Notes under the pieces: model-generated
Told to the model about the DNA's origin: nothing
Database searches by the model: none
What the model saw: the letters and a program-made list of their open reading frames with translations, nothing else
Assembly (NCBI GenBank): GCA_026414805.1
Contig: JAOAIH010000002.1
Coordinates: 7,156 to 71,155, forward strand
Length of the DNA: 64,000 bases
Source: Spirochaetota bacterium
GTDB lineage: Bacteria; Spirochaetota; UBA4802; UB4802
Direction of reading: 5' to 3'
Made by a program: the position numbers and the translations under genes
In this document: piece after piece, positions 23,995 through 39,923 of the stretch
Layout: each line of letters begins with the position of its first letter
How positions within the stretch are numbered: position 1 is the stretch's first letter

Positions 23995-24873
23995 ATGCAT
24001 TTTATAACTAAAAAATATCTTATATCCAGTGATTTCGTTATTATTTTTATAATAATGCCTTTCATAGTATGTTACCATTTACATTGTACTCCAGTATTAA
24101 AAGATTTTAGAGTGTATAAATTACACGGAGAAATATATATAGATAGCAATAAAGCCCAATTACATCAAACAGTAAATAATAACACAATAGAAACCAATTC
24201 TTCATCATATTGTGTAATAGGTAATGATACTACGTATATTTTTATAACTGGAAACAGCGCAATTGATTTTGACATTGATAATACAAAAAAAAGCATTAAT
24301 ATACAAATAAATAGAGGAAACATAATTTTAATATCCGATAAAATTATAAAAAATATAACCGTAACCACTCCAATATATGAATACAATGGCGATATAAAAA
24401 ATATTCAAATAATGACCAAAGATGATGCTTTGTTATTATGGAGTCTAGAAGCTAAGGGGACGCTGAAAAATACAAAGGATAATATAGTTAAATTTATTGA
24501 TAATAAACATCAATTTATTCAGGCCGATCAGGATGTTGTATATTTAGAAATGGATACAAACATTTATGATGAACTTAGAAACAACGCCGAAATATTTAAA
24601 AAGGGTTTAATGCACAACAATTTAGAAGAGAATTTTATGCATCAAAAACTTATCGCTTTGGGCAACAAAGATATAAAAGAAACAATTATGCTAGCACTTT
24701 TGGAAAAAAGGGAAGGTAAATTAAAAAAGGTTATAACAAAAAGTGGGAATGAATATATTGGAATAGCTGTTGCACGAGGTAAAATGTTAGAAATATTAAC
24801 TGTAAAAGGCAAAATAGTGATTCCACAATCAAATGTTAAGTATGTTTTATATTATTCGCCTTTTTTAGAGTGA
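23995..24873 (+). CDS. hypothetical membrane-anchored protein, first gene of surface-protein locus
   Basis: 292-aa ORF with an N-terminal TM helix (FVIIFIIMPFIVCYHL) followed by an Asn/Ile/Lys-rich extracytoplasmic region. No recognisable catalytic motif. Confidence 0.5.
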   Translation: MHFITKKYLISSDFVIIFIIMPFIVCYHLHCTPVLKDFRVYKLHGEIYIDSNKAQLHQTVNNNTIETNSSSYCVIGNDTTYIFITGNSAIDFDIDNTKKSINIQINRGNIILISDKIIKNITVTTPIYEYNGDIKNIQIMTKDDALLLWSLEAKGTLKNTKDNIVKFIDNKHQFIQADQDVVYLEMDTNIYDELRNNAEIFKKGLMHNNLEENFMHQKLIALGNKDIKETIMLALLEKREGKLKKVITKSGNEYIGIAVARGKMLEILTVKGKIVIPQSNVKYVLYYSPFLE

Positions 24874-24904
24874 TACTATCATAAGGTTATTGTATGAGGT
24901 TTCA

Positions 24905-27900
24905 ATGAACATAATAACAAAAAATACACACAATAGAACATTCACAAATAATAGATATATAACAATATTTTTCATTATTTTTATTGTATTTATTAATGGT
25001 TGTGTTGGAGGAGGTAATTCCGCAGATACCGAACCACCAGTTGTGATAAGTTTTACTCCGCACCGTGGTCAGACAGATGTGCCAATAAACACGCAAATAG
25101 TTGTTACATTCAGCAAAAGCGTTATTAATATAAATTCAAATACATTTTATATAGAAAAGTTGAGCGGTGGGAAAATAGCTGCCAGTATAATGTACAATGA
25201 TAGTACAAGAACTGCCGTATTGCAGTTGTTGGAAAATTTAGATTATAATTCGATATATTATGTTACCCTAACCAGTGAAATAAGAAGCCGTTCGGGGGTG
25301 GCTCTGATACCTGAAGCCTGGGCATTTATTACAGGAATTCAGGCTGATACGCAAAAACCAACAATTATTGAAAAAAGCCCTGCTTATGAATATTACGTTA
25401 ATTTAAGTACACCAATATATATTGTATTTAGTGAACCTGTCATCAATGTAAATTCAACTACTGTTTTTATTAAGAAAGGGAATGATATACTCCAGGCAAG
25501 TGTTGCTTATAATGAAACCACCAGAAAAGCAGAGATAACTCCATCACAACCGCTTGAGGAATGGACACGTTATACTATAGTTTTGACCGATAGTATAACT
25601 GATTTGTCAGGAAATTCGCTTGATGCGTATCAATATACCTTCCGTACTGATGACACAACCTATCCCTCTGTAATCAGCAAATACCCTGAGGGTGATGAAA
25701 TTCCTACTAATTCGCTGATCTCTGTCACATTCAGTGAATCGATTAAAAGTTATACTATAACAAATGTAAATAATTTTAAATTAGAAAAATGGACAGGTGC
25801 TACATGGGAAAATGTTGAGAGAATAATTACCTATAACGATAATACTAAAACAGCAATATGTTACTCTCAGAGTGGATTGGAACCCAATACAGAGTATAAA
25901 GTAACATTGAAAAAAGATATTCGCGATCAGGCACATAATCCATTAAATCAGGAAACCACTTGGCAATTTACCACTAAAAATGAACCGGATACCACACCTC
26001 CTCAGCTATCTTCAAAAGTTCCTAATGATAATCAAACAAATGTTCCAACTGATACAGTTATCACTATAACCTTCAATGAAAATGTTTTAGGGGTTGATTC
26101 TACATCGTTTGTGGTGAAGCGTGCTGATACTAATGAAGCAGTTCAGGGTACAGTTATATATAATCATAACATGTATCAGGCAACCTTTACGCCTGTATTT
26201 ACTCTTGCAGAGGGTGTTTGGTATAAAGTTGAATTGTCATCAAATATTCATGATACAGCAAATAATATGCTTGTGCCAGTGAGCTGGCAATTTAAAACTC
26301 AGGACACCACTAAGCCTGATATAACATATCGGTATCCATCAAACGGAATGGGAAATGTGGGAAATAATGTTAATATAGTTGTGACTTTTAGTGAAAGGGT
26401 TAATAATGTTTCTGTACAATCGTTTAAGATCCGCAATGAAACAACAGGACAATATATTGCAGGAAATGTGACCTATAATGATGCAACAAAAACTGCCACA
26501 TTTGATCCTGATGATCCATTGCCGTTTGAAACAACATTTACTGTTGTCCTCACAAACGATATAAAAGATGCAAGTGATAATAGTTTGAATTATACAGAAT
26601 GGTCATTTCAAACCGGTATTGAACCCGATACAACACCACCTTCAATTGTATCACGTTATCCATCTTCTGGACAAACAAATATACCCATATCATCCACTAT
26701 TCAAATACAATTCAGCGAACCTGTATCAGGAGTAGGTCCACAAACAATACAGTTAAAAAAAGGCGATCAAAATGGCATACCTATTCCTGTAATGGTAAAC
26801 TATGACTCGATATCCCAGCGAGTAAACATAACTCCACTCGGTAACCTGGAATATGAATCCCAATATACTGTTGTAGTAATAGGTGGCGATAGCTCCGACA
26901 TAAAGGACGTGGCTGGCAACAGATTTGCTTCAACTGTAAACTGGTCGTTTGCAACAACTGCTGATACTACATCACCGTATGTAACTTTTAAATCACCGGA
27001 ACAGGGGACTCCCGATATTCCTGGGAATGCTGTTGAAGTTCGAGTGCTTTTCAGCGAACAGGTAATGAATGTAAATACAAATACATTTAAATTACGAAGG
27101 GTTTCCGATAATACCGAGATATCCTGTAATGTAACGTATAGTTACAATCCTCAGAATAATATTGCACAAGCTGTTTTGACACCTCTTGCCAATATTACAG
27201 TGACTGGTACATATAGAGCAGAATTATCAAGCGCAATAACCGACATGTCTGTTGCACAAAATCCTTTACAGGCAGTACAATGGACATTTGAAATTACCGC
27301 AATTGATGAAACTGCACCAACGGTAGTGCTTAAATCTCCTGCTGCTGGGAATACCAACTGGAATAATAAAAAGGTTACCGTTATCTTTAGTGAAGATGTC
27401 AAAGGTGTAAGTGGTAGTTCATTTTTTATAAAAGATCAGTATAATACTACAATCCCTGCTACCGTCACTTATTATCCAGGTTTGCTTACTGCAGAATTAG
27501 AGGTTCTACAGGATCTTGAATATGAAAAAACCTTTACTGCATATTTAACCAATGCTATTAAGGATAAAGCAAATAATACACTATCACCAATATCATGGTC
27601 TTTTAGCACTCCACAGGATAGCATACCACCTTTTGTGTCAACTGTATATCCTCCAGATGGTACAACCGGATATCCGGTTAATGGTAGCATTTGGGCAAAA
27701 TTTTCTGAACCAATTCAAGGATATAGCAGTTCATCATTTTATCTAGATCCCCCTGTAAGTGCCACAATAGTGTATGATGAGCAAACAAAAACCCTGACTT
27801 TGATTCCTCAGTCCAACATGCAGGGTCAAACACAGTATACAGTACGTATTACCACAGCTATAAAAGACAGAGCTAATATTCCCAATTCGCTGCTTAACGA

Positions 27901-29833
27901 TTATATATGGCGTTTTACCACGCAATATGTACCGGATACCACACCACCTACAATAGTTGCTGGAAGCCGTTTCCCCGCTCCTGGCACAGTTAACGTACCA
28001 CTGAATTCCAATATCAGATTACAGTTTTCAGAAGCTGTAAAAAATATTGAAAAAATCACTTTGAAAAAAGGTACCATTACTATACCAGTTGAAATTTCGT
28101 ATAATCCAGCAACTTTTACAGTGACACTTGACCCAATTGATAATTTAGAACAGAATACAGTGTATACTGTTACAGTACCTGGTGGTTCCACTGGTATTGT
28201 AATCATGGACTTGGCCGACAACAGGCTTGCATCAACTGATACATGGCAATTTACTACAGAACTTGATACAACCCCACCATCAATTATTTCACGATATCCG
28301 GTGCCGGGGGCAGTCAATGTACAATTGAAGCCTGTTATAACAGTTACATTCAGTGAACCGGTTGTAAATGTTACCACTTCTACCTTTACATTAAGCGGAA
28401 GCGGCGTTGGGACATTTTATGTTGTTTATGATGATGCTACACGGACAGCTACGCTTACCCCAGGAACTGAATTAAGCAACAACACTACATATACAGTAAC
28501 TTTAACCAACGGAATACGCGACAGGTACAATAATTCATTATCAACAACTACATGGACATTTACCACATATAGCTTGCCTCAAATTACCAATATTGAAGTA
28601 TCAAATAATGGTGGCTCAAGCTATTCAGCAATTACAGATGCTGCAACAAATGTTAATTCATTATTAACTCATGTTCGTATAACCTTTAACCGTTCAATGA
28701 ATACCGAAAAACAATGGTTACAGATTTATGAAGGGGCTTCGGGCTCTACAACTCCAGCACCGTTAACACCTTTTAATTACTTCTGGGATTCAAACAATAC
28801 CAGAATAACGTATATATTAAAAGGTCGATGCAAAGGAGGAACACAATATCAGTTTAAACTGTTTGGTTGGGGTGGTAGTTTTGAAGATACTGATGGGAAC
28901 AGAGTGAGCAGAACAGCCTATGTTGGTGATGGTATTTTAAATTTTACCACTGCCGCTGATAGTATTGCACCACTTGTTATTGCTACAATACCTTATAATA
29001 GCGCTACAAATGTAGGAAGAGATATTGGTTTTATTATCATACAATTTAACGAAATGATGAATCAATCCAGGGATTCACGCATAACACTATCCCCAGCAAT
29101 AACTGCTACACGTCAGGGATGGATTGAAGGTGGCAGGACAGTTATATTTACAATTGGGCAACTTGCAGCCAACACTACATATTCAGTAACACTTAATTCA
29201 GGAACAAACAGTTTTCAGGATCTGGCAGGGAATAATGCTGCAGCTTCTGGACAGGTTATCTGTACTTTTACAACCGGGACTACCACTGGTTCATCCACAC
29301 AACTTTCAGAAAGCTTTGAAAATTATTCCCAACCATATTTTTCTAACTTTAAAAATATAAGTACCGATAACACCGATTGGATTAGAATTACGACCGAACG
29401 CTCAGGTAATGGTTCTACTCTGTCACCTCCGCAGGGCAGTTACTTTGCCAAAGCAGCAAGCTTTGAATATGATCCTGGCACATATTCAGATATAGTGAAC
29501 ATAAATTCAATTAATATGTCTACGCTGGGAAGTTATATATTAACATTCCAGATGTATCATGAAAGGATTTACAATGCCCCAGACAGAATAGAAGTGTTAT
29601 TAAGTACTGATGGAATTAACTTTAATCCCATAGATACTGGAGCAATGGGTCAGGTATACCGCTATGACTGGTCATTAGGCAACGATAATCCAGTGTGGCA
29701 AACACACTATGTTGATCTTTCTGCCTTTTCAGGTCCGGGGTATAATTCCGTATGGATAAAATTACGAGCTTACTCAGCAGGTGAAATGGGACAAAATATC
29801 ATTGTAGATGATGTTAGATTGCTGAAATATTAG
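24905..29833 (+). CDS. giant surface lipoprotein with 13 tandem SbsA/Big_5-type Ig-like domains and a C-terminal MAM/jelly-roll-like domain
   Basis: Signal peptide with a lipobox-like 'FINGC'. Thirteen ~105-aa units each open with a D-T-T-P-P-x-(V/I)-x-S-x-x-P motif followed by '...F.VvF(S/N)E.V.....tF.l' (e.g. ADTEPPVVISFTP, PDTTPPQLSSKVP, PDTTPPSIVSRYP, DTTPPSIISRYP). The last ~200 aa ('...YVDLSAFSGPGYNSVWIKLRAYSAGEMGQNIIVDDVRLL') resemble a MAM/choice-of-anchor-type beta-sandwich. Start assigned to ATG 24905 with a GAGGT Shine-Dalgarno; the ORF is open from TTG 24890. Confidence 0.8.
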   Translation: MNIITKNTHNRTFTNNRYITIFFIIFIVFINGCVGGGNSADTEPPVVISFTPHRGQTDVPINTQIVVTFSKSVININSNTFYIEKLSGGKIAASIMYNDSTRTAVLQLLENLDYNSIYYVTLTSEIRSRSGVALIPEAWAFITGIQADTQKPTIIEKSPAYEYYVNLSTPIYIVFSEPVINVNSTTVFIKKGNDILQASVAYNETTRKAEITPSQPLEEWTRYTIVLTDSITDLSGNSLDAYQYTFRTDDTTYPSVISKYPEGDEIPTNSLISVTFSESIKSYTITNVNNFKLEKWTGATWENVERIITYNDNTKTAICYSQSGLEPNTEYKVTLKKDIRDQAHNPLNQETTWQFTTKNEPDTTPPQLSSKVPNDNQTNVPTDTVITITFNENVLGVDSTSFVVKRADTNEAVQGTVIYNHNMYQATFTPVFTLAEGVWYKVELSSNIHDTANNMLVPVSWQFKTQDTTKPDITYRYPSNGMGNVGNNVNIVVTFSERVNNVSVQSFKIRNETTGQYIAGNVTYNDATKTATFDPDDPLPFETTFTVVLTNDIKDASDNSLNYTEWSFQTGIEPDTTPPSIVSRYPSSGQTNIPISSTIQIQFSEPVSGVGPQTIQLKKGDQNGIPIPVMVNYDSISQRVNITPLGNLEYESQYTVVVIGGDSSDIKDVAGNRFASTVNWSFATTADTTSPYVTFKSPEQGTPDIPGNAVEVRVLFSEQVMNVNTNTFKLRRVSDNTEISCNVTYSYNPQNNIAQAVLTPLANITVTGTYRAELSSAITDMSVAQNPLQAVQWTFEITAIDETAPTVVLKSPAAGNTNWNNKKVTVIFSEDVKGVSGSSFFIKDQYNTTIPATVTYYPGLLTAELEVLQDLEYEKTFTAYLTNAIKDKANNTLSPISWSFSTPQDSIPPFVSTVYPPDGTTGYPVNGSIWAKFSEPIQGYSSSSFYLDPPVSATIVYDEQTKTLTLIPQSNMQGQTQYTVRITTAIKDRANIPNSLLNDYIWRFTTQYVPDTTPPTIVAGSRFPAPGTVNVPLNSNIRLQFSEAVKNIEKITLKKGTITIPVEISYNPATFTVTLDPIDNLEQNTVYTVTVPGGSTGIVIMDLADNRLASTDTWQFTTELDTTPPSIISRYPVPGAVNVQLKPVITVTFSEPVVNVTTSTFTLSGSGVGTFYVVYDDATRTATLTPGTELSNNTTYTVTLTNGIRDRYNNSLSTTTWTFTTYSLPQITNIEVSNNGGSSYSAITDAATNVNSLLTHVRITFNRSMNTEKQWLQIYEGASGSTTPAPLTPFNYFWDSNNTRITYILKGRCKGGTQYQFKLFGWGGSFEDTDGNRVSRTAYVGDGILNFTTAADSIAPLVIATIPYNSATNVGRDIGFIIIQFNEMMNQSRDSRITLSPAITATRQGWIEGGRTVIFTIGQLAANTTYSVTLNSGTNSFQDLAGNNAAASGQVICTFTTGTTTGSSTQLSESFENYSQPYFSNFKNISTDNTDWIRITTERSGNGSTLSPPQGSYFAKAASFEYDPGTYSDIVNINSINMSTLGSYILTFQMYHERIYNAPDRIEVLLSTDGINFNPIDTGAMGQVYRYDWSLGNDNPVWQTHYVDLSAFSGPGYNSVWIKLRAYSAGEMGQNIIVDDVRLLKY

Positions 29834-29923
29834 TGTTTTATGAACTGGTTAACAACGCATGTTTTGTTACATGAAACATATTATTAATACAACTGCTAAC
29901 CCAAAAAGGGGTGGAGTAATAGT

Positions 29924-32900
29924 ATGAGACGATTGATTTGGTTAATTTTATTACTGGCTATTTCAAATATTGTATGCAGCGGTGATGTTTTTCACAATTA
30001 TAAAAAAGAACGCGATACAATGAGTATTCCCTATACGCCAGATACTACTCCTCCCCACATTGTAGAGGTAAAGGCATTAACAAGTAATACCATAAAAGTT
30101 ATTTTTGATGAACAAATTGATCCAGCAACAGCACTAAACTATGCTAATTATTATATTCAAGGCATCAATAGAGTAAATGTATTGTCTAACCCTGCACCAA
30201 GCATGGATGGCAGCAATGCTGTAATTCTCAACGTTTCAACTGGCCTTGAGTATGGAATGCACCACGGTAAACAATACACACTATTAGCTCAAAATATTAA
30301 AGATATTTCTGGGAATATATTACTGAATGGCATTTCCCAATTTACTGGTAAGGGTCAAATTGTTGCATCTATATGGTTTTATGATAAAAATAATGATTTG
30401 CGCCAGTTTAGCGATGATCTAGATTATATATATTTTAATTCTAAAAATATTGAATTTATAATTAAAGTAAATGATGATACAAATGGTTACTATTCTTATT
30501 CGATAGATGATTTACCTTACAGCAGCGAAATCCCGTGTACTGATAAATTAATTTTATCTAATCTTTCTGATGGTGTGCATACTCTACAAGTAATAGGAAA
30601 GGATAGTCAGGGGAAACTGCAAGATTTAAACCAGCCATCTTCAGTTTCATTTATTGTTGATACTACACCACCTGTTGCAACATTATCAAAGTTACCTGAA
30701 AGCGTAACAAATAACACTGAAATCGCGGTAGTAGTTGGCGGATTGGATGTAGTGATGTATCGATTTAGGCTCAATAACGAACCGTGGAGCAACGTTATAT
30801 CCGTAAACACACCTATTATCAGAAAAAAATTACTTGGCGGTAACTATCGCCTTGAAGTAAAAGGAATTGATAGCGCAGGTAATGAGCAAAATATTGCCAC
30901 AGCATATCAATGGAGAGTAACATCAGGCAATAGCATCTACTTTGTCAGTAAACCAGAACGTTATACTCGTTTACGAAATGTTGATGTAACACTTGGTGGT
31001 GAAAATATATATTTTTATAAGTATAGCATCAACAATAATATATGGAGCGGGTATATTTCTATAGATCAGCCAATAGTTTTACGAAACTTGCAGGATGGTG
31101 ATTACACAATACGTGTGATAGGAGCTGTCATCCCAGGCGATACTCCATCCGAAACCGATGAAATTGAATACACTTGGACTGTTGATACTAAACCTCCAGT
31201 ATGTACACTCAGCAACTTACCAGCAAATTTTACCAATAAGCAACGAGTTACGATGGTTGTTTCATCTACCGATGGTGAAGTGGTGGCCTATAAATATAAA
31301 CTTTTCAGAAACGGATATCTTCATGAAGAAAGTGGTGTATGTAGTGTAACACAACCATTGGAGTTGAGCAATCTGTCTGAAGCATCATATACTCTTAAAG
31401 TTATGGGAATAGACAAAGCGGGCAATATACAAAGCGAATCAAGTGCAACCGAATATACCTGGACAATAGATTTAACACCACCACAAGTAAGTCTTTATAA
31501 TTTGCCGGCAAGAGATTCCAAAATAAATTCTATTGATATAGCAGTTGGACCACCTGATGTGGTTTCATATAAATATTGTCTAAATACAGTAACCTGGTCA
31601 CAGGAAATAAATAGATCTATTAACATAACCAGAGCAAACCTGTCAGATGGCATCTATACACTATCGGTAATAGGTAAAGATCTTGCAGGGAACTGGCAGA
31701 GTTTTCAAACTCCAACTCAGCATATTTGGGAAATTGATACAACCCCACCTACTGCTGTGTTACTTAATAAACCTCCTGAAGTAACAAATTTACAGAGTGC
31801 CGATTTTGTAATAGGCGGAGTAGGAGTAGTTAAATACAGATATAAATATAACGGTGGAGAATGGAGTCAGGAATATGACCGGATTCAATATCCAAATATT
31901 GTACTCGATAATCTATATGAAGGTTCCCATACCATCCAGGTAATAGGATGTGATAAAGCTGGAAACTGGCAAATCATTCCAACACAGTATACATGGTCAA
32001 TCAATGTTTCATTACCAACTGCTATTTTAAGTGGTACCCCATCATACTATTCTAACGTAAATAATATAAATATTACTGTTGGTGGTGCAGGGATTATAGC
32101 ATATAGATATAAAATTGATAATCAATCATGGAGCGCAGAAATTGATGTTTCAAATCCTATAGTAATATCTAATTTATCCGAAGGGTACCATATCATCAAA
32201 GTAATAGGGAAAAACAGTTTGAATCAATGGCAATCTGTTGAAGCAGCTACTACTTTTGAATGGATAATTGATACAGTTCCTCCAGTTGCGCAGCTTACAA
32301 ATACACCACAAAGCCCAACAAACAACCAGTCCATAGCAATTAAAGTATATGGAGTGGGAGTGTATGCATATAAATATTCTCTGGATGATCCTGATCCGCG
32401 CGGCAGTCAGGAATTTTTAATTGATACTGATGATACAATTAATATTGATAATATACTAGGTGGTCAACACACATTGTATGTTATAGCCCGAGATGAAGCT
32501 GGAAACTGGCAGGATTATAATCACCCTACAACATATATTTGGACAATTGATACCAGTACACCAACAGCTATGTTTGATGCAGCTACATTGCCAAAAAATA
32601 TAACCAATCAAACAGGTATTAATATTAAAGTAATGGGTAGCAATATTGTTAAATATAAATATAAATTGGATACATTACCATGGAGCGGTGAAATTGATGT
32701 TAATGACCCTATTATGCGATTGGGATTAGCGGAAGGAACGCATATAGTCAAAGTTATAGGTAAAAATGAAGCAGGAACCTGGCAATCAGAAAGCAATGCA
32801 ACTGAATACAGCTGGATAATTGATATAACTCCACCAGCTCCGCCAGAAATACTTTTACAAAACCTTCCAAATAATTTAACCAATGAAACAAGTATTAATA

Positions 32901-35137
32901 TTATTGTCAATGGAACAGGAATAACACATTACAGATATAAACTAAATGAAGAAAACTGGAGTGATCCTATTCTACTGGGTACTAATATTGTACGTTCTGG
33001 ATTAATTGAAAATACATACAATCTTTATGTGATAGCAAAGGATGAAGCTGGAAATTGGACAAGTGAAAGTAATGCAAAAACATACTCATGGCGTGTTGAT
33101 TATACCAGTCCAATTGCAGCTATTACAAACAGACCTGATAATCCATCAAACCAAAACTGGGCTGAATTCATAATAGCGGGCACAGGGATTGTGCAATATA
33201 AATATAAAATAGATAATGGGTTGTGGAGTGATTGGGTTGATGTCAATCAGCATATAATTTTAAATAATCTACCTGATGGAATACATACAATTTCTGTGTG
33301 CGGACGAAAAAGTTCCAATCCACCTTATTTTGAACAGGCAGAACAGGATGCAACAACGTATACATGGGAAGTAGATACCGTTGCACCAACTGCTGTATTA
33401 AGCAACCTGCCATCAAATCCAACTACCAATACTTCAATAAGTATTACAGTAGGAGGTTTGCAGGTTGTGGCATATCGATACAGAATTAATAATGGAGCAT
33501 GGATACCTGTTACATCTGAAATCATCAAAGAATTCCCTATTGTCTTGAGCGGTCTTACCCCGGGTAACTATCAAATTGATGTTGTTGCTCGTGATTTAGC
33601 TGGTAACTGGCAAATCATACCAACAAGCTACGTATGGACAATAAATCCTCCTCCTCTTGTGTCACCAGCAACAGTGGATATTGGTGAATACAGTACATCT
33701 GCTGCACTAATGTTCAGTTGGGTGCGCCCGTATGGTACAGCAGATGTAAAAATACAAATAGCGTCTGATACCAATTTCAGCAATGTTGTTTTTGAAAGTG
33801 TAGTTGGCAACGTAGACAGCTATACATTTGTAGCGCAAAGTACCGAAATAGAACGTTATTATGCGCGTGTGGCTGTCAATGATCAACCTGGTAAGCCTTT
33901 AAATGATCCAAGCTGGAAACCATGGGGACAGGCAAGTAATGGAATTGCTATGGTGGGTTCAGTAAGTGGTGTTGTTAAAAATGCAGTAGGATTTGCAGCA
34001 TTGAGTAATGTAACTATTGAGTTAAGAAAAATGATTGATAATTCATTAATAGATACCACCACAACCGACACCAACGGTGGATTTACTTTTACTGGAGTAC
34101 CAATAGGCAGCAATAAATATAAACTTGTTGCTTCTCTTACAGGTTATTATACCGCAACAAAAAATAATATTACCATTACATTAGGTGTACAATTAAGCGC
34201 AGGAACAATATATCTTGTGCCAACCTCTGCATCAAGCGGTACCATTACCGGTACAGTCATTGATGCCAATGATGCAAGTAAATTAGCGGGAGTAACCGTT
34301 GAGGTATATAACTGGCAAAATATTTTAGTAGCATCTACAGTGACTGCATCAGGAGGTACATTTACAACAACAACGTTAAGTCCCGGTGTATATTCTGTAT
34401 TGTTTAAAAGGACTAACTATTATGATCTTTTAGTAGATAATATCGTAGTCAATGGCAACAGAGATATAGGACGCCAGGCAATTTGTGCATATCTTGTTGA
34501 GCCAATGGTACGTGTAATAGTGTTATGGGGACAAAACCCTCAGGATCTTGACCTGCACGTTGTTGGTCCAACATCACAAACAGTTGTCGAAGCCGATACT
34601 GCCTATAATAATCCTCAAAACAGATTCCATGTGGGCTATATTGGATATACAAATTATAAATGGCAATATAATTATAATGAACTCACTGGTGCATACGAAA
34701 GAGGTGATGATAAAAGCTCAACTACAGTTCCCGATAGAACAGGTACAAAATCAACCACTGCATTAGTACAGGATGTATATCCTGGAAATACCATTACAGG
34801 TTCCGGTTATGGTCCTGAGGCAATTAATTTATGGCGCTACGGAGGAGTTCAGTATGCCAGAGGTATTTTCACTTATACTGTCAGGAATTGGTCAGGAACT
34901 GATTGGTATGCTGGCGGAAGAGATGTCATAGTAAGGATATATGATTCACAAGGTATGGTACAGCAGATATTAATGCCGCAGGGAGCAACTGACCCTGGAA
35001 ATACAACCCGAGATTGGAAAGCGGTAAAAATCAATATACAGGGGAATACGCGTTCAAAACGTATTATTTATGTGCCAACGCAAGGAGTATTTTTCAATGC
35101 CGGTGTGGATAGAAACAAGGCTGGTTTTGACTGGTAA
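29924..35137 (+). CDS. giant secreted/surface protein: N-terminal Ig-like domain, 11 tandem ~90-aa beta-sandwich repeats, two carboxypeptidase-regulatory-like domains, PPC-like C-terminal domain
   Basis: GGGGTGGAG Shine-Dalgarno and signal peptide (MRRLIWLILLLAISNIVCSG). Repeats at ~30658..33660 share the pattern 'DTTPP.a.L.n.P...TN.......V.G.g...Y(R/K)YK.n...WS.........L.dG.H...V.g.D.AGNWQ'. These are followed by 'GVVKNAVGFAALSNVTIEL...TDTNGGFTFTGVP' and 'GTITGTVIDANDASKLAGVTVEVY' (CarbopepD_reg-like) and a C-terminus with 'VIVLWGQNPQDLDLHVVGP' (pre-peptidase C-terminal-like). Confidence 0.8.
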   Translation: MRRLIWLILLLAISNIVCSGDVFHNYKKERDTMSIPYTPDTTPPHIVEVKALTSNTIKVIFDEQIDPATALNYANYYIQGINRVNVLSNPAPSMDGSNAVILNVSTGLEYGMHHGKQYTLLAQNIKDISGNILLNGISQFTGKGQIVASIWFYDKNNDLRQFSDDLDYIYFNSKNIEFIIKVNDDTNGYYSYSIDDLPYSSEIPCTDKLILSNLSDGVHTLQVIGKDSQGKLQDLNQPSSVSFIVDTTPPVATLSKLPESVTNNTEIAVVVGGLDVVMYRFRLNNEPWSNVISVNTPIIRKKLLGGNYRLEVKGIDSAGNEQNIATAYQWRVTSGNSIYFVSKPERYTRLRNVDVTLGGENIYFYKYSINNNIWSGYISIDQPIVLRNLQDGDYTIRVIGAVIPGDTPSETDEIEYTWTVDTKPPVCTLSNLPANFTNKQRVTMVVSSTDGEVVAYKYKLFRNGYLHEESGVCSVTQPLELSNLSEASYTLKVMGIDKAGNIQSESSATEYTWTIDLTPPQVSLYNLPARDSKINSIDIAVGPPDVVSYKYCLNTVTWSQEINRSINITRANLSDGIYTLSVIGKDLAGNWQSFQTPTQHIWEIDTTPPTAVLLNKPPEVTNLQSADFVIGGVGVVKYRYKYNGGEWSQEYDRIQYPNIVLDNLYEGSHTIQVIGCDKAGNWQIIPTQYTWSINVSLPTAILSGTPSYYSNVNNINITVGGAGIIAYRYKIDNQSWSAEIDVSNPIVISNLSEGYHIIKVIGKNSLNQWQSVEAATTFEWIIDTVPPVAQLTNTPQSPTNNQSIAIKVYGVGVYAYKYSLDDPDPRGSQEFLIDTDDTINIDNILGGQHTLYVIARDEAGNWQDYNHPTTYIWTIDTSTPTAMFDAATLPKNITNQTGINIKVMGSNIVKYKYKLDTLPWSGEIDVNDPIMRLGLAEGTHIVKVIGKNEAGTWQSESNATEYSWIIDITPPAPPEILLQNLPNNLTNETSINIIVNGTGITHYRYKLNEENWSDPILLGTNIVRSGLIENTYNLYVIAKDEAGNWTSESNAKTYSWRVDYTSPIAAITNRPDNPSNQNWAEFIIAGTGIVQYKYKIDNGLWSDWVDVNQHIILNNLPDGIHTISVCGRKSSNPPYFEQAEQDATTYTWEVDTVAPTAVLSNLPSNPTTNTSISITVGGLQVVAYRYRINNGAWIPVTSEIIKEFPIVLSGLTPGNYQIDVVARDLAGNWQIIPTSYVWTINPPPLVSPATVDIGEYSTSAALMFSWVRPYGTADVKIQIASDTNFSNVVFESVVGNVDSYTFVAQSTEIERYYARVAVNDQPGKPLNDPSWKPWGQASNGIAMVGSVSGVVKNAVGFAALSNVTIELRKMIDNSLIDTTTTDTNGGFTFTGVPIGSNKYKLVASLTGYYTATKNNITITLGVQLSAGTIYLVPTSASSGTITGTVIDANDASKLAGVTVEVYNWQNILVASTVTASGGTFTTTTLSPGVYSVLFKRTNYYDLLVDNIVVNGNRDIGRQAICAYLVEPMVRVIVLWGQNPQDLDLHVVGPTSQTVVEADTAYNNPQNRFHVGYIGYTNYKWQYNYNELTGAYERGDDKSSTTVPDRTGTKSTTALVQDVYPGNTITGSGYGPEAINLWRYGGVQYARGIFTYTVRNWSGTDWYAGGRDVIVRIYDSQGMVQQILMPQGATDPGNTTRDWKAVKINIQGNTRSKRIIYVPTQGVFFNAGVDRNKAGFDW

Positions 35138-35148
35138 AATCTGTTATA

Positions 35149-35190
35149 CACTGCAGCATTGAAAATGAAAATCTACTCTTTGCTGCAGTG
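35149..35190. repeat. perfect 10-bp inverted repeat CACTGCAGCA/TGCTGCAGTG with 22-nt loop, 12 bp after the giant gene stop
   Basis: Arms at 35149..35158 and 35181..35190. It contains two PstI-type CTGCAG cores. No U-run follows, so it is not a canonical intrinsic terminator. Confidence 0.5.
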
Positions 35191-35375
35191 AAGATTTCAA
35201 GCAGCAAAAAACTTTACTTTAAAAGTTGTGTTGATAATGGTGACAGTGAGACTTCTTTACATAATTTAATAGATTTTACAAATAGAGCTGAATGAAATTA
35301 ATGGGGAAATTTTAGAATTTGTTTAAAAAAATTATATAAAATAAAGAAGTTAAATATAAATTAAGAGTTAAAGAA

Positions 35376-36002
35376 ATGATGCAAAAAAAAGTGCAATTGG
35401 TCATTACTGTTTATATCCTATTTATGTTTTCATTAAAGCTGTATGCTCAGCAAAAACAGGCCGATATAAAAAAACAAAAGTTTGAACCAACCAAGCCTGC
35501 TATTGAAATACAAAAAACAAATGATACAAAACAATATAGTAATATTATTTTTGCAATGTCTGGTGGATATTTTTCCCCTTTAGGAACCGAGTCTGTGATG
35601 TTAAATGGTAGCTGGATGATTAAATCGTTTATTCAGCAAAATAATATTGAAAATACCCTTTTTGGAATAGGTGGCGATTTGCTTTACACAAAACTTCAGG
35701 ATAAAAAGTATGATGGTTATATAATGTATGTAACATTTATACCAAATGCAACAGCAGTATTTCCATTGTACAAGAATTTAATGGTAATACTAAAAGCCGG
35801 ACCAGGCTTTACAGTACTACATTCACATTTAAATGACTTAAATGAAAGCTCACTATCAATGACATTAGCAGCTGGTGCAGGATTATTTATAATTATAAGT
35901 CAGCAATTTATATGGGGTATTGAAAACATGTATCATTATTACTTTCAGATACATGCTTCATCATCGTTAAGTTATTATTCCTATATTGGATATAGATGGT
36001 AA
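35376..36002 (+). CDS. small secreted protein, predicted outer-membrane beta-barrel (OmpW/OmpA-like size class)
   Basis: Cleavable signal peptide (MMQKKVQLVITVYILFMFSLKLYAQQ). Alternating hydrophobic beta-strand pattern with an aromatic C-terminus (...YSYIGYRW). 208 aa. Confidence 0.5.
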   Translation: MMQKKVQLVITVYILFMFSLKLYAQQKQADIKKQKFEPTKPAIEIQKTNDTKQYSNIIFAMSGGYFSPLGTESVMLNGSWMIKSFIQQNNIENTLFGIGGDLLYTKLQDKKYDGYIMYVTFIPNATAVFPLYKNLMVILKAGPGFTVLHSHLNDLNESSLSMTLAAGAGLFIIISQQFIWGIENMYHYYFQIHASSSLSYYSYIGYRW

Positions 36003-36047
36003 TTTTTGGAGTAATGGCATAATAAAATTAATTATCGGAGGAATAAA

Positions 36048-37550
36048 ATGAAAAGAATTGTCACAGTAATGGTATTAATGTTGAATTTTGTTTTTTTTGC
36101 ATTCAGGTTATCTGCTACTACTACCAGAGATATGGGACTTGGATTATTTGAATACCCCTGGTTTATTGATGGGTTGCAGTCGTATATCTATGAAAACCCT
36201 GCATATATCAGCAATTACGGTGACAAGATATATGCTGAGCGAATTGGAATTATAAATGGGGAAAATAAAGGTGGTGTCATTTATAATATAAAAAATAATT
36301 TGTTTATTGGAGTAGATTTGGGATCTCCAGTTGATACAAGCCTATGGAATACTAATGCTGTAGATAGCTTATTTAATGTAGATGTTTATTCAGCAAAATG
36401 TAAATCACACTACAACCATTCTATTATTACATCACAGTCAATGAAAGCATATCAGGTTGAATTGCTTGATGAAACAATTTTAGATATAAAAGATCCCTAT
36501 GATGCAAGTGAGCTTGTTGGTACCAACACTACATCGCCTCAATTACGTGAAAAGCTTAATCAGCGAAACTTCAGTGCATTATTTGGCTATAAGTTAAATA
36601 AATTTAGTGTTGGTTTTTATGCAGGCTACGCCACTTCATGGAAACATTACCGTGACAGCACTTCGGCAACAAATTCACATGAAGAATATAATCTAATCAA
36701 TGCTGAGTATTCTGCCAAATTAGGAGTTTCATATATAATAAATAATAAGGTAAGCTTTGATATATCAGGATTCTTTTTCATGTATGCATTAGACAATAAT
36801 TATATGCAAAGAAAGCCTGGTATTGATTTTGATATGTCATACAAATCGGACGGTGCAATGGATTTTGGATCAAATCTAAGAGTTAATTATGCAATGACTA
36901 ATAATCAAAAAGTGCATTTTTATGTAAGTTACTGGATGTTAAACAGAAGTACAAAAGGTGAGATGCTTATATCTGATTCAAAACCCATTAATAATGTAAA
37001 TGCTACTGATACCTTTGAACGTAAAGGTCAGAAAATAAGTGCTGGTGTTTCAGATGAGATAAGTATTGATAAGAATATGATAGTGTTCATTGGATTTTTA
37101 ACTAATATAGAATTCTTTAAAAATAATTACTACGGAGTGGATGCCATAACTCCCGCAAATAACGTAGATACGTATACGTTAAATTACAAGGCAATAGAAG
37201 TACCCGTAATAATTGGCCTTGAAGCTAATGTAAGTGAAAATTGGAAAGGACGCTTAGGGCTTGTGCAAAAGATATACAAACCATTGTCGTATGATGGTAC
37301 CAATATAATTAATCAAGGTGCAAATAAGATTCCTACCACCATTGATGAAATATCATCTTCATCTTCTACATTATATACAGGGCTATCCTATAAATTAAAT
37401 AATTTTACTTTTGATTGGCTGATGAATGTTGAATTATTTACGGTTGGTCCATACATTATTTCAGGTAAGTCCTGGACGGCTAATAATGAAAATCCTTTGG
37501 CTTTTGCATTTGCAATTACTTATAATTTTGAAACCAAAAGTAGTGAATAA
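36048..37550 (+). CDS. secreted 500-aa protein, predicted outer-membrane beta-barrel of unknown family
   Basis: GGAGG Shine-Dalgarno and signal peptide. Numerous amphipathic beta-strand segments rich in Y/F/N/S/G ('FSVGFYAGYATSW', 'VSFDISGFFFMYAL', 'VHFYVSYWML', 'LAFAFAITYNFE'). No soluble POTRA-like N-domain. Confidence 0.45.
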   Translation: MKRIVTVMVLMLNFVFFAFRLSATTTRDMGLGLFEYPWFIDGLQSYIYENPAYISNYGDKIYAERIGIINGENKGGVIYNIKNNLFIGVDLGSPVDTSLWNTNAVDSLFNVDVYSAKCKSHYNHSIITSQSMKAYQVELLDETILDIKDPYDASELVGTNTTSPQLREKLNQRNFSALFGYKLNKFSVGFYAGYATSWKHYRDSTSATNSHEEYNLINAEYSAKLGVSYIINNKVSFDISGFFFMYALDNNYMQRKPGIDFDMSYKSDGAMDFGSNLRVNYAMTNNQKVHFYVSYWMLNRSTKGEMLISDSKPINNVNATDTFERKGQKISAGVSDEISIDKNMIVFIGFLTNIEFFKNNYYGVDAITPANNVDTYTLNYKAIEVPVIIGLEANVSENWKGRLGLVQKIYKPLSYDGTNIINQGANKIPTTIDEISSSSSTLYTGLSYKLNNFTFDWLMNVELFTVGPYIISGKSWTANNENPLAFAFAITYNFETKSSE

Positions 37551-37784: not shown

Positions 37785-39923
37785 ATGGGGGTTGTGATGG
37801 AAGCAAAAAATATAATAAGGCAATTCCAGAAATATGGTACAGGTGTTATTTTATTCAATGCGATTATATTTATCATTATATTACAGCTTTCATTCCCACT
37901 ATTTCAGGATACAAGATTATTAATTACATTTTTAATCTTATGGGTTATTTCGTTTACCTCATTATTTATTTATTATATGTGGATGGTTAAAAGTATAATT
38001 AAAATTATTGAATCGGATGATGAGCAAAAAGAATACAAAATTTTTAATAAATTTAAAGTAAGTGCTAAGCAAACGATGCTTTTGAACATTGGTTATTTGG
38101 TTTTAGTTTATATTCCGCTATTCTTTTTTATGTATTTCCTGTATGGATACAATAATGTATATTATCACTTTTATGTTTTTTTTATTTTAGCATTTGTATT
38201 CTTGTTTTTGGGATTTAATTCGATGTTAGTTTGGTATACTCGTACATATCCCCTTGGAAGATTTGGTATACCAATTGCTGTGCAACGATTGCGAAGCAAG
38301 ATAGTTAGTATAGTATTGCCTATAACATTACTAACATCTGTGTTTATGTTGGTGCTATTTTATAAAATTGATAAATCCAATGTTGAATCATTAACTGCTT
38401 CTAGGATATTTGATGTTTTACAACAAATACAGATTGATTCAAAAGACTCATTTATTAAATCAATACCATCTATAGTTAATGAATATAATGGTGTAGTATT
38501 GGTTTGTGAGGATGAACAAATTGTTCAATGTAACAAGGAAGAATTTATTTCACAAAACATCCATAAAATTATAAATAAAGGCAAACAACCACAATTTCTA
38601 TATAACAAGACAATCAATTTTTTAAAAAATATAAAGAATAAAAACTTTTCAAGTACTGAAGGTGTATTTGAAGGTGAACAGGCGGTTTTATTTACTTATT
38701 CAGTACCTGATAGCAATAAAATAATACTTGTTGCATTCATAGAAAAAATATTATATTCTTCGGTATATAAGAGCATCTTTTATATCACATTAGGAATGAT
38801 TATTATTAATTTAGCAATCAGATATATAATTAACCGTCGTTTGATGAATTTGTCTTTAGCATTGGATATTGCTATGCCTTCATTACAGAAAGCTACTCGT
38901 GGTGATCTAACCGGCGAAATTAAACTTATAAAATCCCGCGACATAATGGAAGATTTTATTCGCAGTTTTATTGGCTTCAGGGAGCAGATAATTGATTTTA
39001 TACGCAAATCAAATGAACTCAGCGAAAAGGTATTGCTGTCATCTGAAGCTCTGGCATTTTCAGGAAAATCAATAAAGGAAGAAGCTGCTCAACAGGCTCA
39101 AAATATTGAAGAGGTGACCTCAATAATTGCAGAAGTATCAGGTGCTTTTTACACAATAGCTTCTGATGCCAACAAACAAAGTGAAATCTTAAAAAACCTT
39201 GAAGATATTATAAATAATCTCAATGAGGCAATGAATAGGCTCAATAACGATGCTAAACAGGTTATAGTTGCAATTCAAGGGGTACAAAAAAGTGCTCGTG
39301 ATAGTGAAACGCTGGTAACAAGTACTGCAGAATCTTCAAAACAAATTGCAACATTTTTTGAAAACATCATGAATGTTATTGGCCTAATATCAGATATTGC
39401 CGAACAGGTTAACCTGCTATCGCTTAACGCATCCATAGAAGCTGCACGCGCTGGTGAGCATGGAAGGGGGTTTGCCGTTGTTGCAGAAGAAATATCGCGG
39501 CTTGCAGACAGAACTGCACAAAATCTAAAGGAGATCACTAAGATCGTAAATGAAGGTAACACCGCGATGAACAGTAATATGAATATGATGAGCACAATGC
39601 GTCATGTACTGCTTTCTATTATTCAGGATATTGAACGCAGTGTAAATTTAATCACTGGTTTCATTGAAACAATCAATCAGCGGGTAATGGATTTTGCAAG
39701 GATCCATGAAGGCATTGCCAGTGCAAGTGAGTTTTCAAAGGGGCTATCGCTATCAATGGCCGAATTAAGTGATAATACCAAAAAGATAGTACAGTCTATT
39801 GAAAGTGTGAATGCAGTTGCAGGCCAGTTTGTTTCACTGTCTGAAAATTTAACTACTACTTCTTCAGAACTTGAAGCTATGGCAGCAGAACTTAAAAAGG
39901 TAATAGAACGATTCAAGATATAA
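37785..39923 (+). CDS. methyl-accepting chemotaxis protein with polytopic N-terminal membrane domain and HAMP
   Basis: About 6 N-terminal TM helices, a ~130-aa extracytoplasmic segment, another TM, a HAMP region, then the MCP signalling domain ('[35 protein letters not shown]'). The stop abuts the convergent purB stop with zero spacing. Confidence 0.85.

Follow-up and report, generated by a model that had tools for sequence, protein, structure and literature searches.

The window analyzed in this study is a stretch of 64,000 nucleotides (nt) of contig JAOAIH010000002.1 (positions 7,156 to 71,155, forward strand) from a Spirochaetota metagenome-assembled genome (MAG; GCA_026414805.1). The gene considered here is an open reading frame (ORF) on the plus strand that encodes a protein of 1,737 amino acids (aa), identical to GenBank MCX8122680.1, and no rival ORF longer than 100 aa is present on either strand of the region. 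From the N to the C terminus, the protein consists of a signal peptide, a weak Big_5/SbsA-like domain, 12 tandem repeats, a segment of ~100 aa, two CarboxypepD_reg domains, and a C-terminal domain of 217 aa (Table 1). Its NCBI product name, "carboxypeptidase-like regulatory domain-containing protein," reflects the CarboxypepD_reg domains alone. The tandem repeats, which a preliminary description of the sequence had reported as an unrecognized beta-sandwich type and perhaps a new domain family, are the main subject of the present analysis.

Table 1. Features of MCX8122680.1 and of the genes next to it (window coordinates)
Feature	Coordinates	Strand	Basis
Whole ORF, 1,737 aa	29924..35137	+	Identical to MCX8122680.1
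Signal peptide ending lipobox-like ...SNIVC; predicted lipid anchor	29924..29977	+	Sequence and invariant columns
N-terminal Big_5/SbsA-like Ig domain, aa 37-153, weak match	30032..30382	+	Pfam, PDB sequences
Repeat 0, aa 156-245, diverged	30389..30658	+	Leave-one-out, family profile, orthologs
Repeat 1, aa 246-333	30659..30922	+	Y_Y_Y 19.4 bits
Repeat 2, aa 334-420, without DTxPP opener	30923..31183	+	No Pfam match at E ≤ 0.1
Repeat 3, aa 421-515	31184..31468	+	Big_13 22.4 bits
Repeat 4, aa 516-604	31469..31735	+	Y_Y_Y 20.8 bits, Big_13 20.8 bits
Repeat 5, aa 605-693, modeled copy	31736..32002	+	Y_Y_Y 21.5 bits; OmpL47-type 25.1 bits; AlphaFold2, Foldseek
Repeat 6, aa 694-782	32003..32269	+	Y_Y_Y 21.0 bits
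Repeat 7, aa 783-875	32270..32548	+	Leave-one-out profile
Repeat 8, aa 876-966	32549..32821	+	Leave-one-out profile
Repeat 9, aa 967-1058	32822..33097	+	Leave-one-out profile
Repeat 10, aa 1059-1150	33098..33373	+	No Pfam match at E ≤ 0.1
Repeat 11, aa 1151-1242	33374..33649	+	Y_Y_Y 25.3 bits, highest among single copies (cutoff 26.6)
Segment of ~100 aa, aa 1243-1345, from last repeat to CarboxypepD_reg domains	33650..33958	+	Without Pfam or NCBIfam match
Two CarboxypepD_reg (transthyretin-like) domains, aa 1346-1424 and about 1440-1504	33959..34435	+	PF13620
C-terminal 217-aa domain, aa 1521-1737, weakly TerD-like beta-sandwich, putative distal "head"	34484..35134	+	
Upstream giant gene, predicted lipoprotein with 13 Big_5 domains, MCX8122679.1	24890..29833	+	Pfam, synteny
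orf208 (208 aa) and orf500 (500 aa), signal peptides, downstream, syntenic	35376..37550	+	Synteny, sequence

The tandem repeat array

Eleven in-frame copies of 87 to 95 aa each occupy nt 30659-33649, and the eleven repeat openers located in the preliminary description all fall on a domain boundary of this one ORF to within 1 to 2 nt. Every copy scored 50 to 109 bits in a leave-one-out profile test, while 300 shuffles per copy never gave more than 11 bits. The ~270-nt periodicity is genuine and far above chance. The count of eleven holds for the copies that had been listed, but the total is twelve, as a more diverged copy directly upstream of them (repeat 0) had been overlooked. Repeat 0 reaches 50.2 bits in the leave-one-out test, the family profile gives it 57.9 bits, and no full-length ortholog lacks it.

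Pairwise identity among the eleven copies ranges from 23 to 49% with a mean of 36%, close to the ~30 to 40% read from the sequence earlier. The statement that each copy keeps one skeleton, from TPP to AGNWQ, went too far, since this skeleton is a consensus. Exact motifs were counted for TPP in 4/11 copies, Y[RK]YK in 6/11, WS in 8/11, D-x-AGN in 7/11, and AGNWQ in 4/11, and a single Tyr and a single Val are the only residues invariant over all 12 copies. Traces of the repeats at the DNA level are limited to remnants of 20 to 60 nt with 60 to 89% identity, which lie in register at multiples of ~270 nt, and Tandem Repeats Finder reported no ~270-nt array.

Family and fold of the repeats

Searches with the whole protein recovered two Pfam families, Big_13 (PF19077; 74.9 bits, E 8e-21, cutoff 27) and Y_Y_Y (PF07495; 71.7 bits, E 5e-20, 5 stretches, cutoff 26.6), and the NCBIfam OmpL47-type beta-barrel domain (NF047446; 42.3 bits versus a cutoff of 40), all three scores being sums of many weak matches. 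The NCBIfam "Ca2+-stabilized adhesin repeat" (Ca_tandemer) also scored 42.3 bits on the whole protein, which is under its cutoff of 50. Big_2 (PF02368) gave no match at E ≤ 1 on the whole protein and none at E ≤ 0.1 on single copies. A broader alignment (A2) comprised 149 copies, namely the 12 of the window and 137 others (<55% mutual identity) from 46 homologous proteins. When these copies were scanned one by one at E ≤ 0.01, Big_13 was matched by 48/149, Y_Y_Y by 41/149, and PKD by 8/149, with the best value (2.7e-8) for Y_Y_Y. Among PDB sequences, the A2 profile matched the SiiE adhesin 2yn3 (E 3.2e-8, 36.6 bits, profile positions 15-86 of 90), the PKD domain of KIAA0319L (E 4.9e-6), chitinase FN3 domains (E 2e-3 to 5e-3), and the Y_Y_Y region of BT4663 (E 0.08). 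A phmmer search of the whole protein against PDB sequences returned nothing for the repeats, which are matched by profiles only. The 2yn3 entry is a structure of BIg_13 (PF19077), a family of the E-set clan CL0159 (PMC9704523).

The AlphaFold2 model of repeat 5, computed with A2, has a predicted local distance difference test (pLDDT) value of 97.9 and shows an all-beta sandwich with six strands of at least 3 residues plus short bridges. This immunoglobulin-like (Ig-like) sandwich bears out the beta-sandwich type proposed from the sequence. The first-ranked Foldseek neighbor of the model is the Y_Y_Y domain of BT4663 (4a2m/4a2l; template modeling [TM] score 0.74 to 0.77, probability 1.00). The BIg domains of SiiE follow at TM 0.62 to 0.67, with NCAM FN3 and collagenase PKD domains as further neighbors, and nearly all of the top 50 PDB neighbors are Y_Y_Y, BIg, FN3, or PKD domains. 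As modeled, the repeat domain has the properties of the E-set/Ig-like beta-sandwich superfamily: a length of ~90 aa, a Greek-key sandwich of the seven-strand type, and Ig-like, FN3, and PKD neighbors. A new fold was considered as well and is ruled out by the model and its Foldseek neighbors.

Collectively, the Big_13, Y_Y_Y, and SiiE matches of profile and fold identify the repeats as ordinary Ig-like (E-set) domains, which form a very large but poorly modeled branch between Big_13 and Y_Y_Y within a known clan. The front half of the repeat (Y-x-Y-x-L-D...W) resembles Y_Y_Y, and the back half (L-x-DG-x-H/Y-T-L-x-V...D-x-AGN) resembles Big_13. With Big_13 and SiiE, the window protein has in common the arrangement of tandem ~90-aa Ig-like sandwiches in a giant surface protein and the late segment L-x-DG-x-Y/H-T-L-x-V-x-A-x-D-x-AGN. 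It differs from Big_13 in the first half of its repeat (Y-[RK]-Y-K-L-D...W-S), which is closer to Y_Y_Y, and from Salmonella SiiE in carrying a predicted lipoprotein signal peptide instead of being a type I secretion substrate. Two motifs of the repeat are common property: the DTxPP opener is a generic interdomain linker, and these families usually have D-x-AGN as the motif of a late-strand loop. The neighboring protein has Big_5 repeats that open in the same way (DTxPP), yet the repeat profile does not match them.

The alternative that the repeats constitute a new domain family may be understood in a strong form, as a new fold or superfamily, or in a weak form, as a family-level cluster of its own inside the Ig-like clan. 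What speaks for it also weighs against the assignment made above, in that single copies never reach the Pfam or NCBIfam cutoffs. Their Y_Y_Y scores lie between 13 and 25.3 bits, and the best values are 25.3 against a cutoff of 26.6 for Y_Y_Y, 22.4 against 27 for Big_13, and 25.1 against 40 for the OmpL47-type domain, so that the copies cannot be placed unambiguously in any single named family. Moreover, 6/12 window copies have no Pfam match at E ≤ 0.01, most of the 149 diverse copies match neither Big_13 nor Y_Y_Y, and annotation by NCBI drew on the CarboxypepD_reg domains instead. The close relatives also form a tight cluster, with 50 to 110 bits per copy versus 10 to 35 bits for proteins of the myxobacterial AgmC type. 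On the other side stand the whole-protein Big_13 and Y_Y_Y matches (E ~1e-20), the profile match to SiiE, and the Ig-like fold with its similarity to BT4663, which exclude the strong form. The weak form concerns the curation of databases, not biology. We therefore regard a new family as unlikely. The preliminary description had named a confident match to an established Ig-like family as the result that would speak against novelty, and this is essentially what Pfam, profile, and structure comparisons returned. Its failure to recognize the domain is understandable at the level of single copies, which are all below cutoff and of which about one-third of the 149 hit Big_13 or Y_Y_Y, but the clan itself is a known one.

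The similarity to BT4663 raises a different question, whether the repeats act as canonical Y_Y_Y domains and serve dimerization or signal transmission in a periplasmic sensor. In structure, they indeed match best the Y_Y_Y domain of the BT4663 hybrid two-component sensor, Pfam Y_Y_Y matches are present, and the Y-x-Y-x-L...W motif is shared with the Y_Y_Y domains of Bacteroides hybrid sensors (BT4663, 4a2l/4a2m; BT3049, 3v9f; BT4673, 3ott/3va6). However, Pfam and NCBIfam scans of the window protein found no Reg_prop beta-propeller, transmembrane helix, histidine kinase, response-regulator, or DNA-binding domain, and the 12 tandem copies contrast with the single membrane-proximal copy in sensors of the BT4663 type. 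We rejected a sensor role on the basis of this domain architecture and consider it extremely improbable.

Age and distribution of the array

All full-length homologs (16/16), which are 42 to 72% identical to the window protein, carry exactly 12 copies. At nearly all positions, each copy pairs best with the copy of the same number in the ortholog, down to about 47 to 53% protein identity. The constant number in all orthologs and this positional pairing indicate that the array is older than these lineages and was never homogenized, so the view that the copies are old, maintained duplications and not products of recent slippage is well founded. Homologs of a second class share the C-terminal module but have 8 copies, and one MAG contains both classes. 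In this MAG (CAZHNW01; loci L011 and L018), the Big_5 gene, orf208, and orf500 flank the 12-copy version only.

Periscope proteins are rod-like surface proteins with a variable number of near-identical tandem domains, and Big_13 examples are among them (PMC9704523). The window protein resembles them in that its E-set domains are lined up in a protein of the cell surface, probably as a stalk. It differs from them in the ~36% identity of its copies, its degraded DNA repeats, and a copy number fixed at 12 in 16 orthologs; with copies so diverged and a number so constant, the array is not a variable stalk of the periscope type. Recent slippage and a periscope-type variable array were thus both ruled out by the degraded DNA repeats, the lack of a Tandem Repeats Finder array, the fixed copy number, and the positional orthology. 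An identity of 30 to 40% is typical of adjacent domains and is thought to limit misfolding (PMC9704523). The ~36% identity of neighboring copies agrees with such a divergence of adjacent domains, by which interdomain misfolding is avoided.

Within the species genomes of GTDB, only Leptospirales and Spirochaetota MAGs contain full-length relatives. As a type, the repeat is also present in Riflebacteria, Geobacter (among them the cultured G. hydrogenophilus DSM 13691), Desulfobacterales, Nitrospirota, candidate phyla radiation (CPR) bacteria, Kiritimatiellota, Oligoflexales, and two archaeal MAGs. The [RK]-D-x-AGNWQS repeat type was seen on archaeal (L031 and L052) and CPR (L041, L043, and L044) MAG contigs. 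The archaeal and CPR occurrence suggests either wide horizontal spread or binning contamination.

A search of 1.84 billion cluster representatives with the family profile retrieved 25,466 at E ≤ 1e-3, 9,855 at E ≤ 1e-10, and 2,070 at E ≤ 1e-30, the lower tiers of which certainly take in ordinary Big_13/Y_Y_Y proteins such as AgmC. The most copies in one protein of this search numbered up to ~51. AgmC and similar "Ig-like domain-containing" giants are matched by the same profile and have 13 to 17 copies per protein. By their low scores per copy, they represent a distant sister group, and they possess further domains, OmpA among them, that are absent from the window protein.

Protein termini, gene neighborhood, and proposed role

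The repeats are better explained than the C-terminal domain. The latter is found in at least 27 homologs, with invariant W15, D21-x-D23-x-H25, and G110-P-E112, and it has no match in Pfam, NCBIfam, or PDB sequences. Its AlphaFold2 model (pLDDT 82.7) has weak, TerD-like fold matches only (2qng, 2qz7, TM 0.41 to 0.54; phage "tellurium resistant like" protein). A likeness to YfaP/DUF2135 that we had suspected received no Pfam support, the weak TerD-like matches being the only ones. The two CarboxypepD_reg domains that precede it are confidently recognized (PF13620, E 6e-21, 2 stretches). The segment between them and the last repeat, which had no Pfam or NCBIfam match, is kept in the orthologs, with many invariant columns in the ortholog alignment (A3).

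The N terminus reads MRRLIWLILLLAISNIVC followed by SGD, and Cys18 and Gly20 are invariant across 13 orthologs in the alignment columns, which suggests that the protein is lipid anchored via Cys18. The domain at aa 37-153 matches Pfam Big_5 at E 4.6e-4 (21.3 bits, under the cutoff of 23.6) and the S-layer protein 2ra1 at E 0.022, the latter being the sole direct PDB sequence match of the whole protein by phmmer.

The gene belongs to a cluster on the plus strand (23995-37550) in the order orf292 (292 aa), the 13-Big_5 lipoprotein gene, the 12-repeat gene, orf208, and orf500. The core of this cluster, from the Big_5 gene to orf500, is kept in 8 Leptospirales/Spirochaetota MAG loci (L001 to L006, L015, and L018). 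The Big_5 protein, MCX8122679.1 (1,642 aa), scores 622.9 bits against Big_5 and has a lipobox-like N terminus; its start in NCBI is at 24905 instead of the TTG at 24890. The C-terminal ~177 aa of this protein show a weak MAM-like match (E 0.0018, below cutoff). The proteins orf208 and orf500 are putative outer-membrane beta-barrels, an assignment weakly supported by a subthreshold match of orf208 to OMP_b-brl (E 0.039). For orf500 and orf292, the searches gave no family match at all. A methyl-accepting chemotaxis protein gene (37785-39923, plus strand) lies directly downstream of the cluster and is not syntenic in most orthologous loci.

We consider it likely that the 12 Ig-like (E-set) domains of the Big_13/Y_Y_Y branch form a stalk in a predicted surface lipoprotein of an uncultured Leptospirales spirochete. 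We infer this role from the architecture and by analogy with SiiE-type and Lig-type proteins. Ig-like domains of SiiE-type adhesins measure ~3.5 to 4 nm each; by this analogy, 12 of them strung end to end would give a stalk of fixed length, roughly 40 to 50 nm. Such a stalk would keep the C-terminal module, composed of the ~100-aa segment, the two CarboxypepD_reg domains, and the TerD-like domain, at a distance from the lipid anchor by which the N terminus would be attached to the outer membrane. The protein may work together with the adjacent 13-Big_5 lipoprotein and the two putative outer-membrane barrel proteins. The Leptospira lipoproteins LigA and LigB contain 13 and 12 Big_2 domains in tandem, respectively, and LigB has a C-terminal nonrepeat domain. 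The window protein belongs to the same bacterial order and shares their general layout, with a predicted N-terminal lipid anchor and 12 to 13 tandem Ig-like domains of moderate identity. In contrast to Lig proteins, it gave no Big_2 match and stems from environmental MAGs instead of pathogenic Leptospira; a functional parallel would be conjectural. The points that count against a stalk of this kind are that its role, surface exposure, lipidation, and partnership with neighbors are drawn from architecture and synteny, that the beta-barrel nature of the partners goes back to E 0.039 for orf208 and to no match for orf500, and that the organism is known as a MAG only.

Instead of spacing a distal module, the repeats could themselves be adhesin modules, which bind a substrate as in Lig or Ca2+ at their junctions as in SiiE; candidate substrates are a polysaccharide, a mineral, or the surface of another cell. 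Their nearest structured sequence relative is the Ca2+-binding adhesin SiiE, the subthreshold Ca_tandemer match points in the same direction, and the combination of a lipoprotein, 12 to 13 Ig-like domains, and a C-terminal domain parallels LigB/LigA. The position-by-position conservation of the copies would suit copy-specific functions, although it is equally expected of a purely structural, nonrecombining array. No ligand-binding motif was identified in the repeats, and the conserved YxY, W, L, V, and W residues lie mostly within predicted strands, which suggests a structural role rather than binding. We hold binding by the repeats to be possible but distinctly less probable than a stalk.

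The S-layer match of the N-terminal domain bears on a further alternative, in which the 12-repeat protein and its 13-Big_5 neighbor build an S-layer-like coat lattice and not projecting stalks. The N-terminal domain and the whole of the neighbor are of the Big_5/SbsA type, with 2ra1 as the one direct PDB hit, and both giant genes keep strict synteny with the two putative outer-membrane proteins. The similarity to 2ra1 is weak, however, and a lipid anchor with a linear 12-domain array is more typical of fibrillar surface proteins. Leptospirales are not known for S-layers. A coat lattice therefore appears quite unlikely, and the stalk remains our preferred interpretation.

A more far-reaching proposition joins two claims and is offered only tentatively. 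The tight DTxPP...Y-[RK]-Y-K-L-D..W-S...D-x-AGNWQ cluster would be a distinct, unmodeled family in the Ig-like clan with thousands of proteins in Spirochaetota, Desulfobacterota, Riflebacteria, CPR bacteria, and some archaea, and in Leptospirales it would in addition be part of an undescribed five-gene surface apparatus. This apparatus would include both giant Ig-repeat lipoproteins as well as two outer-membrane barrels, and the TerD-like C-terminal domain would be its working end. That both claims hold together is doubtful.

Tandem Ig-like domains are commonplace in giant bacterial surface proteins, and the array carries little weight as a discovery. The part of the locus that calls for explanation is the C-terminal domain and the conserved gene cluster, not the repeats, whose domain type Pfam Big_13 and Y_Y_Y already recognize, if weakly. 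Nevertheless, ~9,900 cluster representatives (E ≤ 1e-10) carry a variant that current models detect only via the summed score of many copies, and a dedicated model would improve their annotation. A model of this kind, placed in the E-set clan, might be warranted on curation grounds, with no biological surprise attached to it.

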